A program made the translations under genes and the position numbers. This document shows, one piece after another, positions 1 through 32,441 of a stretch of DNA of 32,441 nucleotides. Positions within the stretch are counted from its first letter, which is position 1, and the number at the start of each line of letters is the position of its first letter. The notes below the pieces were generated by a model. The model made no database searches and had not been told where the DNA came from. It saw only the letters and a program-made list of their open reading frames with translations. Origin of the DNA: a virus (lineage: Duplodnaviria > Heunggongvirae > Uroviricota > Caudoviricetes); IMG/VR virus record IMGVR_UViG_2541047895_000011; one strand, written 5' to 3'.

Positions 1-1011
1 TTATAACGTCACTCCGCCTTTTAGTGGATTCAGAGCGACGGCATTTTGCAGGTAGTCAGGCGCAAGGTGCGCATAGGCCATCGTCTGCTGAATGCTCGCA
101 TGTCCCAGAATCTGTTGCAGTGCGATTATATTGCCCCCGTTCATCATGAAATGGCTTGCGAATGTATGCCGCAGGATGTGGGTTGCCTGATTGGGTGGTA
201 TATCAGGTTTCACTCTGCGTAAAATCCCGCAAAATTTCTCATAATCAACTTTGAATAATTTGGCGCTTGCCTCCTCTTTAACTTTTTTCTCCAGTTCCTC
301 AGAAATCGGCACGGTTCGCTTTTTACCGTTTTTGGTTTTCAGGAAGGTAACCCTGCAATTTGTAATCTGTGCTGGTTTTAGCGTGGCAACTTCCGTCCAT
401 CTTCCTCCAGTGCTCAGACATAAAAGCGCGACAAGTAAGTCATCACCAGCCAAAACATTTAACAGTTTTTCGATTTCTGCTTTTTCCAGGAACGTCATTT
501 CAGGGTTGGCCTCCGCCAGTGGCGGCAGTCCGTGAATTGGGTGTTGCCCGGAAAATTCATCCAATTGAATTAATTTTGTGAACATGCCGGATAATCGGTA
601 CATGTCACGGTTTATCGTTGCGGCACTGATACCATCACGTAGTCGTATGGAACGATAATCCATCAAAGCCCTTTTGCTCATCCGGCTCACTGGTATATCA
701 CCTATGCCGCTGATGGTTTTGAGTAGATGATTAAACTCTTTTGTTCCATGCTCGTGGTTTTGCCCGTGATATTTCCACCAGATGTCCAGCAACTCACTCA
801 AAGTTCGGCGGTCTGCTCGCTGGCCTCCCCATTCTTTCTGACTGGCATTGGCGATTGTGTATCGCTCAAATGCTAGTGCTTCAGCTTTTCTTTCGAATTT
901 CCTGCGGATGCGTTTTCCGTCGCGACCGCGAGGTCTAATGTCCACTTCATAGCGACCATCATCGAGCTTCTTAATTGCCATAAGAAAGCCCTCCGGCGCT
1001 GTATTCACCAT
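1..1011 (-). CDS. int: Phage integrase (tyrosine recombinase), P2 Int-like
   Basis: 336-aa ORF; C-terminal region has the tyrosine-recombinase pattern (HILRHTF ... LGHASIQQTMAYAHL with the terminal Tyr); lies immediately downstream of the C repressor on the same strand, as in the P2 C-int operon. Confidence 0.9.
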   Translation of the reverse strand: MVNTAPEGFLMAIKKLDDGRYEVDIRPRGRDGKRIRRKFERKAEALAFERYTIANASQKEWGGQRADRRTLSELLDIWWKYHGQNHEHGTKEFNHLLKTISGIGDIPVSRMSKRALMDYRSIRLRDGISAATINRDMYRLSGMFTKLIQLDEFSGQHPIHGLPPLAEANPEMTFLEKAEIEKLLNVLAGDDLLVALLCLSTGGRWTEVATLKPAQITNCRVTFLKTKNGKKRTVPISEELEKKVKEEASAKLFKVDYEKFCGILRRVKPDIPPNQATHILRHTFASHFMMNGGNIIALQQILGHASIQQTMAYAHLAPDYLQNAVALNPLKGGVTL

Positions 1012-1050: not shown

Positions 1051-1344
1051 TTAGCCAATCCTTTTCGCGGAGTGGTTGGACTCTGTTGACTCTGGCCCAA
1101 TGTGCGCGAGAGCCGGTGCGATTTGTCCTGCGTCCGGCGCGGTTTTATCTGTCATAAGCCATAGAGCATATTTTTGGAATGTGGGATGCATAGTGATTTT
1201 TAGCAAAGCTGTGCCACCGGGTTCAAAGTTTCCTCCTTCATATTTTTTAAGTGTGCTTAGCGGTAACTCTATGATTTCACAGAATTTTGATTGGCTTAGC
1301 CCTTCAGCCTCACGCAAGGCCTTAATCTTTTCGCTTAATTTCAT
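1051..1344 (-). CDS. C: Immunity repressor, P2 C-like; C-terminus conserved (GQIAPALAH), N-terminal HTH region divergent
   Basis: 97-aa ORF divergent from cox across a 121-bp switch region; the C-terminal motif matches my recollection of P2 C, the N-terminal part does not, suggesting a different immunity specificity. Confidence 0.75.
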   Translation of the reverse strand: MKLSEKIKALREAEGLSQSKFCEIIELPLSTLKKYEGGNFEPGGTALLKITMHPTFQKYALWLMTDKTAPDAGQIAPALAHIGPESTESNHSAKRIG

Positions 1345-1400
1345 TTGACATGGTGCCTATATAGGGACTAAATTCCCTCAAAACTGGAACCTATATAGGT
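1345..1400. promoter_or_regulatory. C/cox switch region: candidate Pe promoter (-35 TTGACA at 1345..1350) and two copies of the palindromic 10-mer CCTATATAGG (1356..1365 and 1390..1399), candidate C operators
   Basis: Read directly: TTGACA at 1345..1350 with a possible -10 (TAAATT) about 18 bp downstream; two identical 10-bp palindromes 34 bp apart centre to centre, the first inside the promoter spacer. P2-type repressors are known to bind repeats overlapping Pe. Confidence 0.5.
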
Positions 1401-1465
1401 TCCATTGATTTGAGAATAAACCAGCGTCTAAACGGTTTTGAGTGGTTTAGAAAGGGCTGGATCCT

Positions 1466-1753
1466 ATGAGGGTACCATATATGGACGCTGAAAATTATGT
1501 GATTCAGTATCCGCTTGATGCGGTTCATGTGGATAAATTTGCTGATTTATTAGGGAAGCCAAAGACAGCCGTCAGTGAAATGGTGAAGGCAAATAAATTA
1601 CCAATTATTGAATTGCGTGATCCTTGCAAACCGAAGGCTCGTGCCGGTGAAAAATGGGTTTTCATTCCTGAGTTTAATCGCGCTGTACGTGAGGCGTTTT
1701 ATAACCGACCGGTTGAACAGCGTGATGCATGGCTTTTGTGGATGGGGTTGTGA
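1466..1753 (+). CDS. cox: Cox-like excisionase / transcriptional regulator
   Basis: 95-aa ORF, first gene of the rightward early operon; shares the P2 Cox pattern as I recall it (KLP.I...DP....RAGE.WV..P.WN ... RD.WL.W.GL). Confidence 0.75.
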   Translation: MRVPYMDAENYVIQYPLDAVHVDKFADLLGKPKTAVSEMVKANKLPIIELRDPCKPKARAGEKWVFIPEFNRAVREAFYNRPVEQRDAWLLWMGL

Positions 1754-5930: not shown

Positions 5931-6977
5931 ATGGCGGTAAAAGTTGTTGATCTTTTTTGCGGTGCTGGCGGTTTAACGCACGGCTTACATTTGGCCGGAT
6001 TGGACGTTGTCGCAGGCATTGATTTAGAAGGTGAGTGTCGTGTTGCATACGAAAGCAATAATGATGCACTTTTTATTGAAAAAGATATATCTCTGGTGAC
6101 AAAAGATGAAATCGAAAATCTTTTTGAAGGGGCAAGTGTTAAAGTATTGGCCGGATGTGCACCTTGTCAGCCATTTTCTAAATATACTCAGGGAAAAGAT
6201 AAAAAAAATGATAAAAAGTGGCCGTTATTATATGAGTTTGAACGTTTAATAAAAGACACGAAACCAGAAATAGTTACAATGGAAAACGTTCCTGATGTGA
6301 CAAAACATTCTGTCTATGATGATTTTTATAATACCTTAATAGCATTGGGTTATTATGTTTGGGCAAATAAGATTGAATGTGTAGATTTTGAGGTTCCGCA
6401 AAACAGAGTGAGGCATGTATTACTCGCATCTAAATTTGCGCCGATTTCTCTGATGAAACCACAAACATCGGTAAAGCTGACAGTTAGGGATTGCATTGGT
6501 AATTTACCTTCGATTGAAGCGGGACAAGCAGATCCAAAAGACCCTCTCCATAAGGCGAGTAGATTGAGTGAAATTAATCTCAAACGTATTCTACATTCAA
6601 AACCGGGGGGGACATGGAGGGATTGGCCTGCTGAATTAATCGCTTCATGTCATGCCAAGAAAAGTGGGCAGGGATATGCCAGTGTTTATGGTCGTATGTC
6701 TTGGGATAAACCGAGTCCAACGATAACTACACTTTGTTATGGTTTTGGTAATGGACGTTTTGGTCATCCCGAGCAGCATCGTGCAATCTCACTTAGGGAA
6801 GCAGCATTACTTCAAACGTTTCCTGTTACATATTCATTTACCCAACCGGGCGAGCCGATCAAAATGAAAAATGTCGGGCGTATGATAGGTAATGCTGTTC
6901 CTGTAAACTTAGGTAAAGCGATTGGTCTTTCAATAGTACATCATTTGAAAGAGTTTCACCCCGCCGCTCTTAAATAA
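5931..6977 (+). CDS. DNA (cytosine-5)-methyltransferase, Dcm family
   Basis: 348 aa with motif I (DLFCGAGG), catalytic PCQ motif IV (GCAPCQPFS), ENV motif VI (MENVPDV), QNRVR motif VIII and a C-terminal GNAVPV motif; GGAG Shine-Dalgarno 6 nt upstream of the ATG; AT-rich compared with the phage backbone. Confidence 0.9.
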   Translation: MAVKVVDLFCGAGGLTHGLHLAGLDVVAGIDLEGECRVAYESNNDALFIEKDISLVTKDEIENLFEGASVKVLAGCAPCQPFSKYTQGKDKKNDKKWPLLYEFERLIKDTKPEIVTMENVPDVTKHSVYDDFYNTLIALGYYVWANKIECVDFEVPQNRVRHVLLASKFAPISLMKPQTSVKLTVRDCIGNLPSIEAGQADPKDPLHKASRLSEINLKRILHSKPGGTWRDWPAELIASCHAKKSGQGYASVYGRMSWDKPSPTITTLCYGFGNGRFGHPEQHRAISLREAALLQTFPVTYSFTQPGEPIKMKNVGRMIGNAVPVNLGKAIGLSIVHHLKEFHPAALK

Positions 6978-7675
6978 GCCTGAGTATCAAGATAAGTTTG
7001 TATATTTTCAAGGATGCAGTTGAGATAATGAAAAACTTCATCCTTCATTTCTGTTAGTGTATCAATAGATGTATCTCTGCCTTTGTTTCTAAATGATTCA
7101 GAACCATGAGCAAGGTCGTTTCTGGCCTTTTTTATTGGAAGTAAATTGCAACCATTTCGCGTTATTTCTGAATCTGTATCTGCTGAGAAGCCATATTTTT
7201 CAGCGACTTCTCTAATTTTTCTAGCATCAACATTTCCAGAAAATAACGGATTTTTATTTGATTGGATAAGTTTTTTGTGAGCGTTTAGCCACTCTTTAAA
7301 TATAACTTTTGCAATGTTCCCTTGTGAGAAATCTATTTTCCCATTTGGTGATTGTAAACTATGAAATGCTACTCTTGTAAGGTTTTCATTTACAGTGTCT
7401 GCACATAATGATTCATTAGACATTAAAACATTATGAATGTCTTCTATTGCATTGGAAATGGTTGCTTCAATGAGATTGTACAATATAATAAATGCATTAG
7501 CCTTTAAAATATGAGTCATGTCAATATCAATGGGTTGTTGTATAGGCGCATCGCTTGTATTCTCTTTATAGACTAGAGATGGTTTTTTGTTTATTAGTAA
7601 CTGAATGAATGAGAAGTATTCATTAATATCTTGCATTCTTTCTTGGAAAAGAATTTTACTTGTCATCTCCTCCAT
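6956..7675 (-). CDS. HEPN-like protein (candidate Rx4H motif, RNDLAHG), putative RNase effector
   Basis: 239-aa ORF, second gene of the leftward operon, 10 nt downstream of the DUF262 gene; near the C-terminus, KKARNDLAHGSESF fits the HEPN Rx4-6H signature; AT-rich. Domain call is by eye and not profile-verified. Confidence 0.55.
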   Translation of the reverse strand: MEEMTSKILFQERMQDINEYFSFIQLLINKKPSLVYKENTSDAPIQQPIDIDMTHILKANAFIILYNLIEATISNAIEDIHNVLMSNESLCADTVNENLTRVAFHSLQSPNGKIDFSQGNIAKVIFKEWLNAHKKLIQSNKNPLFSGNVDARKIREVAEKYGFSADTDSEITRNGCNLLPIKKARNDLAHGSESFRNKGRDTSIDTLTEMKDEVFHYLNCILENIQTYLDTQAYLRAAG

Positions 7676-7685
7676 TTACTTGGCC

Positions 7686-8831
7686 TCACTCCATATTTTC
7701 ATCTTCATTTTCATCTTCGTCGACAATATTTTCTGGAATGTCTTTCCCAAGCAACTTGTTTTTTACATATTCAATGCGTGCTTTAACTTTGGGTTTAGAG
7801 TTGCTGGCATCTGAACGTGTGTGCGTGATAAACTCTTTCGAGTTGATCCAGTCATCAATATTTTTAGGAACTAAATTGGGTTCTTCCTCTAGTGCTAATG
7901 TTGCACCGACGGCAAGAGCTTCGAAACGAATCCTAGGAACAGTGGTGGCGTTTTTCACCTTTCTGAAACCATTTGGGAAATGTGTATTAATGAATTGGCA
8001 CATTTTATGAAATTTTTCCGCCAGCATAGCTGCGTTTTCATCTGTATATTCGGCATTTTTACGTTTTAAATAGGTTGTAAGAAATTCATCAACGCTTTTT
8101 CTGAAATCAAGATATTCTTCAGTGTAGGCAAAGTAGCGTAGTGCCAATTCTGGATATTCAGAGCGACGTTTTCTTGCATCTCCCAAAGGACAGATGCTAT
8201 GAAATAGAGGATCTTCGGAAATTTCATTGATAAATGCAAGGAATGGCCCATCATGGCTACCTTGCCGTTGTTCCATTGTTGTTAGTTTTTTTCCGCCAGT
8301 ATTCAGACGGTCAAAAATTTCCCTTCTTGTCTCTTCGTCACAATGTTCTGTAAGTTCAATCATTCGAATAGTTTTTCTATCAAAACGTAGGCGACGGGGA
8401 GTACTGAAATCAGAATATTTAAAACCATTGGCTGTGACTAATTTCTGCAGGCCTTCAAGAGTTAGTTTGTTATTGGTAAATTGGTGTAGGGTTCTTATTC
8501 GTTGGCTACCGTCAACAATTTCAAGTCTACCTTCATTTTCACCTGAACCAATATCGGCAACGAATATGTAAGGTATAGGAAGATTTAAAAGCAGAGATTC
8601 AATGAAACGGGATTTTTGCTTGTTGTTCCAGATAAACTCCCTTTGGTAGTCAGGTATAAAAAGCTCTGCCTCATCTTCTTCAAGACCATTCTGAAATTTG
8701 TCCACAATAACACTTATCGGGAACTCACGTATTTCATGGTCAGTGATTTTTTGCATTTCAACTATGCTTTGATCTAAAAGCTCCTTTTCTTCTTTAGTTT
8801 TTGGGGTATGTTCTGCTTTTTTTCTCGCCAT
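7686..8831 (-). CDS. DUF262 / ParB-like (GmrSD N-terminal-type) protein with acidic C-terminal tail
   Basis: 381 aa; N-terminal region has the DUF262 hallmarks (IPDYQREFIW followed by EIVDGSQRIRTL, a DGQQR-type motif); no recognisable DUF1524/HNH module; C-terminus is DEDENEDENME; first gene of the leftward operon starting near cos. Confidence 0.75.
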   Translation of the reverse strand: MARKKAEHTPKTKEEKELLDQSIVEMQKITDHEIREFPISVIVDKFQNGLEEDEAELFIPDYQREFIWNNKQKSRFIESLLLNLPIPYIFVADIGSGENEGRLEIVDGSQRIRTLHQFTNNKLTLEGLQKLVTANGFKYSDFSTPRRLRFDRKTIRMIELTEHCDEETRREIFDRLNTGGKKLTTMEQRQGSHDGPFLAFINEISEDPLFHSICPLGDARKRRSEYPELALRYFAYTEEYLDFRKSVDEFLTTYLKRKNAEYTDENAAMLAEKFHKMCQFINTHFPNGFRKVKNATTVPRIRFEALAVGATLALEEEPNLVPKNIDDWINSKEFITHTRSDASNSKPKVKARIEYVKNKLLGKDIPENIVDEDENEDENME

Positions 8832-31457: not shown

Positions 31458-31538
31458 ATCCTCAATTTGCCTGCTGCTTAATGCATTGCAGATGATTTGC
31501 TTCCGTTATACTACCGTCAGTTGATAGCGGGAGTATTT

Positions 31539-32441
31539 ATGAATCAATCTTATGGACGGCTGGTCAGTCGGGCGGCGATTGCTGCGACGGCGATGGCTTC
31601 GCTGCTATTGCTGATTAAAATTTTTGCATGGTGGTATACCGGGTCGGTGAGTATTCTCGCCGCGCTGGTGGATTCGCTGGTGGATATCGGCGCGTCGTTG
31701 ACGAATTTACTGGTGGTGCGATATTCCCTGCAACCTGCCGACGATAATCACTCGTTTGGTCACGGTAAAGCTGAGTCCCTCGCGGCGCTGGCGCAAAGTA
31801 TGTTTATCTCCGGTTCGGCACTATTCCTGTTTTTGACGGGTATTCAACATCTGGTATCTCCAACACCGATGACAGATCCAGGCGTCGGGGTTATCGTGAC
31901 AATTGTGGCGCTAATTTGTACGATTATCCTTGTCTCGTTTCAGCGTTGGGTGGTGCGCCGGACGCAAAGCCAGGCGGTGCGGGCTGATATGCTACATTAC
32001 CAGTCTGATGTTATGATGAACGGCGCAATTCTGCTGGCGCTGGGGTTGTCCTGGTACGGCTGGCATCGCGCCGATGCTCTGTTTGCATTGGGGATCGGCA
32101 TCTATATTTTATATAGCGCGTTACGCATGGGATATGAGGCGGTACAGTCATTACTGGATCGCGCATTGCCTGATGAGGAACGGCAAGAAATTATTGATAT
32201 CGTGACTTCCTGGCCGGGTGTTAGCGGCGCTCACGATCTTCGCACGCGGCAGTCAGGGCCGACCCGCTTTATTCAGATTCATTTGGAAATGGAAGACTCT
32301 CTGCCTTTGGTTCAGGCACATATGGTGGCGGATCAGGTAGAGCAGGCTATTTTACGGCGTTTTCCGGGATCGGATGTGATTATCCATCAGGACCCCTGTT
32401 CCGTCGTACCCAGGGAGGGTAAACGGTCTATGCTTTCATAA
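31539..32441 (+). CDS. fieF: Cation-diffusion facilitator, ferrous-iron/zinc efflux pump FieF (YiiP)
   Basis: Track ORF 31497..32441; the ATG at 31539 with a GGAG Shine-Dalgarno gives 300 aa beginning [53 protein letters not shown], which I recognise as enterobacterial FieF; marks the host flank. Confidence 0.9.

Follow-up and report, generated by a model that had tools for sequence, protein, structure and literature searches.

Karlsson et al. reportedly defined P2-type immunity classes I to VII in 2006. As the term is used here, an immunity class comprises phages whose C repressors are at least ~95% identical and whose operators are the same (definition from PMC3448106). Half-sites have been mapped in three P2-type phages. 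P2 half-sites are 8 bp long, lie 22 bp apart from center to center and flank the -10 element of the promoter Pe; Wphi half-sites are 10 bp long, lie 34 bp apart and flank the Pe -10 as well; and P2 Hy dis half-sites are 8 bp long, lie 26 bp apart and flank the -35 (PMC1904268, PMC1904263). Those of Wphi have been defined by mutation, EMSA and SPR (PMC1904268, PMC1904263). In vivo, single half-site mutants of Wphi are still repressed, and only the double mutant loses repression (PMC1904268).

The C family generally combines a divergent N-terminus with a conserved C-terminus, and the recognition helix lies in the variable N-terminal half (PMC2995052). The strictly conserved residues, in P2 numbering, are R13, E16, Y37, E38, K60, Y61, P72, and the segment from G75 to H83 (PMC2995052).

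Early region of the window

The window, meaning the whole 32,441-base stretch that was analyzed, has the classic P2 early-region layout at its left end. By ORF order, int and C are followed by divergent cox, orf, B and A. This is the gene order of a P2-type C/Cox switch, collinear with the annotated P2, Wphi and L-413C records, in which int also occupies the same position. The C-cox spacer measures 121-136 bp, and beyond it the plus strand encodes a Phage_Cox protein, a small ORF, a B-like ORF, and a 783-aa A-like ORF. The principal genes are as follows.

1-1011, minus strand: integrase, listed as 336 aa (Pfam Int_N and Phage_integrase); the ORF reaches the window edge
1051-1344, minus strand: C immunity repressor, 97 aa, with an N-terminal helix-turn-helix (Pfam HTH_3, above cut-off)
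1481-1753, plus strand: cox, 90 aa from ATG 1481 (the ORF list gives ATG 1466 and 95 aa); Pfam Phage_Cox, E = 1.2e-23

Most close homologues of cox are annotated from the ATG equivalent to 1481, which has GAGGG 8 nt upstream, and 569R9 is annotated from the upstream ATG. Because the upstream ATG runs into an in-frame stop in phage P37, a start at 1481 is likelier than one at 1466. The Cox protein is 82% identical to that of Wphi, 88% to that of P37, and 41% to that of P2.

Two palindromic 10-mers at the early promoter

The first-pass annotation of this locus had described a switch that carries two identical palindromic 10-mers, one of them in the spacer of a rightward promoter, and both statements are confirmed. 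The sequence CCTATATAGG occurs exactly at 1356-1365 and 1390-1399 (34 bp from start to start), and these are its only two exact copies in 32,441 bases. Both copies are perfect palindromes, and the second forms the center of a perfect 20-bp palindrome, TGGAACCTATATAGGTTCCA, at 1385-1404. No further copy with up to one mismatch is present across the 32,441-base window, and a search of the whole window for further C sites at up to two mismatches returned only one unrelated match, at 8548. An exact direct repeat of at least 10 bp arose within the 136-bp C-cox spacer in 30 of 5000 dinucleotide-preserving shuffles (0.6%).

A promoter scan returned a single sigma-70-like site, which matches at 10 of 12 positions and consists of TTGACA at 1345-1350, an 18-nt spacer and TAAATT at 1369-1374. 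The P2 record annotates the Pe -35 at the same position as this TTGACA, and CATTTGAC is invariant when the window is aligned with Wphi, P37, SW5 and ENT4. The first 10-mer lies inside the Pe spacer, between TTGACA and TAAATT, and the second at ~+9 to +18, just past the inferred start. As is typical of a P2-type switch, two repeated half-sites overlap Pe, and here those at 1356-1365 and 1390-1399 flank the -10. The elements of the spacer, including the predicted operators O1 and O2, are as follows.

1345-1350, plus strand: Pe -35, TTGACA, from the promoter scan; adjoins the C start codon (complement CAT, 1342-1344)
1351-1365, plus strand: predicted O1, left arm TGGTG plus core CCTATATAGG (1356-1365), within the Pe spacer
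1369-1374, plus strand: Pe -10, TAAATT, from the promoter scan; aligns with TATATT in Wphi, P37, SW5 and ENT4
1385-1404, plus strand: predicted O2, the perfect palindrome TGGAACCTATATAGGTTCCA with its core at 1390-1399, at ~+4 to +23 of the inferred Pe transcript
1372-1417, no strand assigned: larger imperfect dyad centered on O2, with 24-nt arms that are 75% complementary; a hairpin is possible at the 5' end of the early transcript
1475-1484, no strand assigned: third CC-W6-GG palindrome, CCATATATGG, which extends over the likely start codon of cox (ATG 1481), 85 bp from O2

The pattern CCWWWWWWGG has five matches in the 32-kb window, and three of them fall within 1356-1484. The third, CCATATATGG at 1475-1484, is speculatively either a weak additional C site or a product of chance.

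For the opposing promoter, Pc, the best minus-strand candidates match at 7 of 12 positions by simple hexamer scoring, and none is convincing. The cox-proximal part of the spacer contains a 7-bp inverted repeat, TCTAAAC/GTTTAGA, at 1427-1433 and 1445-1451. Beside it lies TAGAAAGGGCTGGATC, which resembles TAGAAGGGACTGGATC of Wphi. The GTTTAGA arm of the inverted repeat coincides with the core of the P2 C half-site. The stretch around this inverted repeat is probably the region of Pc and the Cox operator.

The repressor and its immunity class

The C protein is 100% identical to L-413C gpC, 56% identical to Wphi C and 43% identical to P2 C. It has the size and the homology of a P2-type C repressor: it is 97 aa long, contains an HTH_3 domain and, by phmmer, matches the solved P2 C structures 2XCJ and 2L49 with E = 1.9e-21 over residues 3-97. 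Residues 1-53 are 32% identical to P2 C and residues 54-97 are 57% identical, so the earlier proposal of a repressor with a P2-like C-terminus and a different N-terminus was correct. Identity to Wphi C is likewise divided, at 45% in the N-terminal half and 68% in the C-terminal half. In a four-sequence alignment of the window C with P2, Wphi and L-413C, all invariant family residues are kept (R11, E14, Y35, E36, K58, Y59, P70, and G73-H81, which reads GQIAPALAH); in a six-sequence set, ENT4 has F at one of the GQIAPALAH positions. Helix 3 reads LSTLKKYEGGN in the window, LGTVKNYESGH in Wphi and YGTLSYYESGR in P2, and some of the differences fall where base-specific contacts have been proposed for P2 C (PMC2995052).

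The window does not fall into P2 class I, given a C identity of 43% and an operator that is not identical to that of P2, which has GTTTAGAT twice at 22 bp versus CCTATATAGG at 34 bp. Nor does it fall into Wphi class III, where C is 56% identical and the operator is TATTGGTGAC. It belongs to the L-413C type: C is 100% identical, and the spacer is alignable with the same repeats and three bases different. Neither P2 nor Wphi has this repressor or this operator, and the locus is therefore most naturally read as having a different immunity specificity, which lends support to the original suggestion of a heteroimmune P2 relative.

The same module is carried by several phages, with 100% identity in C and 99.4-100% identity across the 721-bp C-cox region:

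"Escherichia phage P2" from O157:H43 strain T22
Peduovirus P24B2
Salmonella phages MET_P1_103_31 and FSL SP-004
Yersinia phage vB_YpM_50
R18C
L-413C

The region is also present in 420 of 5426 complete E. coli genomes (~8%). L-413C, sequenced in 2003-2008, served as a representative P2-type phage in an analysis of C, Cox and Int (PMC3448106). The immunity type is thus not new but is the known and widespread L-413C module, within which the operator is here predicted. A full-text literature search for CCTATATAGG returned only unrelated papers (on MADS CArG boxes and similar subjects). Novelty is low, because both the kind of system and the module are known.

The repeats as candidate operators of Pe

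The Wphi record reads CAT-TTGACA-GTAACC-TATTGGTGAC-24 nt-TATTGGTGAC, and the window reads CAT-TTGACA-TGGTG-CCTATATAGG-24 nt-CCTATATAGG. At the same two positions, the repeats are AATTAGTGAC and AATTTGTGAC in ENT4, and in SW5 they are TTAGTGAC and TTTGTGAC. A five-way alignment of the window with Wphi, P37, SW5 and ENT4 keeps CATTTGAC, the block GAC-TA(T/A)ATTC that includes the -10, an A-rich block, and CTGGATC near cox, and in it the repeat positions are class specific. Because the geometry is that of Wphi and class-specific repeats occupy the same places, the window repeats are positional homologues of experimentally defined operators. The nearest characterized architecture is that of Wphi, not that of P2.

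Yersinia phage P37 has a C protein that is 66% identical to that of the window, with a Wphi-like helix 3. No clear direct repeat was found at the expected positions of its spacer, only the inverted pair TTAATGAC/GTCATTAA. The P37 type is also found in E. coli genomes, with 78.5% identity to positions 1040-1760 of the window.

The two copies of CCTATATAGG are very probably the cores of two Pe operators, O1 and O2, in a switch that has the P2-type C/Cox organization and L-413C immunity. The assignment draws on their sequence, geometry, homology, conservation and natural variants. By analogy with the characterized phages, we infer C binding, repression of Pe, and heteroimmunity. On the model of its homologues in P2 and Wphi, the 97-aa C protein would bind as dimers to O1, between the -35 and the -10, and to O2, at ~+9 to +18; binding would probably be cooperative, with the DNA bent. 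Bound C would occlude RNA polymerase at Pe and leave cox, B and A silent, so that lysogeny is maintained. Superinfecting phages with the same operator would be blocked, but P2 and Wphi would not. The switch would thereby decide between lysogeny and lysis and determine which related phages can superinfect the lysogen.

Natural variation in prophages and lytic isolates

Among 42 copies of the region in phage records and IMG/VR contigs, gathered with a search pattern that left the 10-mers free to vary, 39 carry both 10-mers in perfect form. The imperfect copies are those of R18C (a GenBank record and its IMG/VR twin) and L-413C. For the 420 E. coli prophages, conservation was gauged with short megablast queries that need a 28-base exact word and with seven sampled loci, rather than by a base-by-base tally; on this measure, positions 1385-1405 (O2) are exact in all 420, and positions 1345-1370 (the O1 region) are exact in at least 407, with two sampled exceptions that vary outside the 10-mer.

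In the seven sampled loci, variation occurs at 1352, 1373, 1374 and 1426, and the 10-mers are untouched. The recurrent prophage polymorphisms are G1352A, in the left arm of O1, and T1374C, at the last T of the presumed -10 and sometimes accompanied by T1373C; G1426A is common. About 79 of the 420 prophages have at least two differences from the window in 1320-1430. All four of these that were sampled carry T1374C; thus, either the assignment of the -10 hexamer is imperfect or Pe is weakened in some prophages.

Across 721 bases, R18C (MN016939) has only two differences from the window: O1 carries G1364T, and O2 carries C1390T. Both changes would fall among the 20 repeat bases with a probability of (20/721)^2, or ~8e-4. 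R18C was isolated as a plaque former, and the description of it as virulent or lytic is that of its authors (PMC6823313). L-413C, a mutant that arose from a temperate phage, is lytic and forms clear plaques (PMC2893161, PMC3448106). Its record (AY251033) encodes an identical C and has three substitutions, of which C1356A lies in O1, T1373C changes the -10, and C1402A falls in the right O2 arm. The C genes of R18C and L-413C are both intact. None of the 420 prophages carries the changes of either phage, the best identities of 98.2% for R18C and 97.3% for L-413C being equivalent to the full two and three differences, and the window, compared with these two phages, has the consensus prophage form. 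HQ103, a phage of the same class grown on Yersinia pestis, has a region 7 bp shorter than that of the window, and its C is annotated only as a truncated ORF.

The predicted operator appears to be invariant in maintained prophages and is altered in lytic escape variants, as would be expected of an operator; we infer causality from this indirect genetic evidence. The substitutions of R18C and L-413C lie at -5, +4, -5 and +8 from the dyads, positions that fit putative contacts on both sides of each dyad. Private operator-region substitutions combined with an intact repressor gene offer a plausible molecular explanation for the lytic behavior of R18C and L-413C, and may be a previously unreported basis of it.

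Related loci and the extent of the sites

Ten relative loci were compared, with C proteins 72-86% identical to that of the window. All ten have TTGACA, ~5 nt, a CCTAWWT-type (CCTATAT-like) core, and a second core 32-33 bp downstream. In every class, O1 consists of the left arm and the core of O2, and the right side of O1 is taken by the -10. When dyads in the ~480-bp neighborhood are ranked, that of O2 takes the top rank in 7 of 11 loci and is among the top four in 10 of 11. The arm also tracks helix 3 of the repressor: LSTLKKYE goes with TGGAACC, LNTLKKYE with TGGGGT, and RSTL[S/A]KYE with TG[C/T]TCC.

Because the O2 dyad, the left arm and core shared by O1, and the correspondence between arm and helix 3 are conserved, the functional site probably extends beyond the 10-mer. 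It would span ~15-20 bp and include a left arm (TGGNN) and, in the case of O2, also a right arm that mirrors it. In the window, the predicted O2 is the full dyad TGGAA-CCTATATAGG-TTCCA, and the predicted O1 the left arm plus core. Perfect palindromy was considered as a conserved requirement and rejected: in the nearest of the relatives that share helix 3 with the window, cores such as CCTATATGTG are not palindromic.

Three relatives that share helix 3 with the window differ in how their sites are arranged. Loci L058 and L061 have a 17-bp direct repeat, ATGGAACCTATATGTGT; in L057, CCCATATAGG and CCTATATGGG make up an inverted repeat of 15 bp together with flanking bases. Site orientation appears to be free, to judge from the inverted repeat of L057 versus the direct repeat of L058. 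A dyad or hairpin, with differing arms, is present at the inferred 5' end of the early transcript in every relative examined (Wphi, P37, SW5, ENT4 and the ten C relatives).

The arrangement could be carried one step further. Each site might be a dyad bound symmetrically by one C dimer, with O2 as a full 20-26-bp palindrome, O1 as a truncated copy, and 1475-1484 as a possible weak O3 for autoregulation or looping. We regard this proposal as tentative and rather unlikely. Symmetric binding of one C dimer per site, which the sequences suggest, would be a twist on the description of P2 C as reading a non-palindromic direct repeat (PMC2995052). The window and its ten relatives suggest dyad-symmetric operators in this clade, which is relevant to the puzzle, raised in the literature, of direct repeats being read by a symmetric P2-type C dimer. 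If the sites are indeed symmetric dyads, the clade would offer a natural route to learning how symmetric C dimers read their operators.

Alternative explanations for the repeats

The dyad at 1372-1417, with its core at 1385-1404, might instead act mainly at the RNA level. It would then form a 5' hairpin that stabilizes or attenuates the Pe transcript, or an antisense hairpin in the C leader; the palindromy of the 10-mer would be a by-product, and O1 a partial copy. A leader hairpin is indeed predicted, at -16.4 kcal/mol in the window, and has equivalents in Wphi, P37, SW5 and ENT4. A scan flagged 1385-1404 together with TTGATTTG as terminator-like, and several T/G mismatches between the arms would pair as wobbles in plus-strand RNA. 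The top rank of the O2 dyad in 7 of the 11 related loci, with class-specific arms, would suit a hairpin as well. Furthermore, the mapped Wphi half-site is off-center from the leader dyad, so the leader dyad exists independently of the C site.

However, an RNA-level role leaves O1 unexplained, which lies upstream of the transcript start yet shares its core and left arm with O2. It also accounts neither for the tracking between arm and recognition helix nor for the single substitution that R18C has in each copy. RNAalifold analysis of five divergent leaders gave compensatory changes in 3 of 12 pairs and a positive covariation term, a weak result limited by the alignment. Moreover, a hairpin is compatible with operators as a second layer. 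An explanation mainly at the RNA level is improbable, and the operator assignment is preferred.

It is very unlikely that the repeats are sites for a factor other than C, such as Cox or a host protein like IHF. P2 Cox does act in the C-cox spacer, and the window Cox is only 41% identical to it; but the Cox proteins of P2 and Wphi act on the cox-proximal side, at Pc (PMC3448106, PMC1904263). In addition, the Cox proteins of Wphi and P37 are 82-88% identical to that of the window, yet the repeats are wholly different, and it is the cox-proximal spacer that is alignable (...GGGCTGGATC...). The repeats covary with helix 3 of C, not with Cox.

There is next to no probability that the repeat lacks an operator role and duplicates a TATA-rich, promoter-like sequence by chance or through base composition: the core is of low complexity (TATATA) and lies in an AT-rich promoter region, where palindromy needs only CC..GG, but so long a repeat is seen in only 0.6% of shuffles, its positions are homologous to those of mapped operators, the sites are apparently invariant in prophages while neighboring bases vary, and class-specific repeats stand at the same positions in ten relatives.

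Other features of the window

Over the first 25 kb, the closest phage genome overall is that of Peduovirus P24B2, with 97.1% identity over 96% of this length. Cargo at 5931-8831 separates the late genes from the A-like replication gene and occupies the position of the P2 "TO" hotspot. It is likely an anti-phage defense island and encodes the following.

5931-6977, plus strand: C-5 cytosine methyltransferase
6956-7675, minus strand: HEPN protein
7686-8831, minus strand: GmrSD_N/DUF262 protein, matching PADLOC NsnA and PD-T4-2_A

An ORF with Cation_efflux and ZT_dimer domains, at 31497-32441, reaches the right edge of the window and is probably a host gene flanking the prophage. The attP core of L-413C is reported to be the same as that of Wphi (PMC3448106). 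Together, this report and the cation-efflux gene at the window end suggest that the prophage uses the Wphi integration site.

Comparison with known systems

With lambdoid operators such as those of P22 c2 and 434 cI, the locus shares the perfect 20-bp palindrome at O2, a size bound by such dimers, and P2 C is structurally near P22 c2 (PMC2995052). Unlike the lambdoid arrangement, two sites three helical turns apart here flank one -10, Pe and a presumed Pc would be face to face, and there is no tripartite OR; symmetric C binding here is putative.

With P2, the locus shares a homologous helix-turn-helix repressor of 97-99 aa with the invariant residues kept, half-sites that straddle the Pe -10, and a divergently transcribed gene for Cox, the second repressor. 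It differs in its C, which is 43% identical, and in its sites, which in P2 are the 8-bp, non-palindromic GTTTAGAT placed 22 bp apart. The P2 literature emphasizes a symmetric dimer that recognizes non-palindromic direct repeats (PMC2995052). As in P2 and Wphi, for which extra half-site copies elsewhere in the genome are reported to be absent, the sites are confined to the switch.

With Wphi (immunity class III), the locus shares the gene order and the operator geometry, in which a pair of 10-bp sites with 34-bp spacing lies on either side of the -10 and the TTGACA promoter adjoins the start codon of C. The inter-site sequence is alignable (ATTCCC..TCAAAA), and Cox is 82% identical. It differs in C (56% identity), in the half-site (TATTGGTGAC there versus CCTATATAGG here), and in helix 3, where S30, L32, K34 and N39 here correspond to G, V, N and H. 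The Wphi half-site is without dyad symmetry, whereas the window site is dyad symmetric.

L-413C, P24B2, FSL SP-004, R18C, and the "P2" of O157:H43 T22 are the same as the window in this region (C 100%, C-cox region 99.4-100%) and form with it one immunity module. The module is found in L-413C, a phage used in plague diagnosis, as well as in ~8% of complete E. coli genomes. The candidate explanation of lytic behavior and the set of putatively dyad-symmetric sites leave the classification unchanged: this is a known kind of switch with a known sequence.
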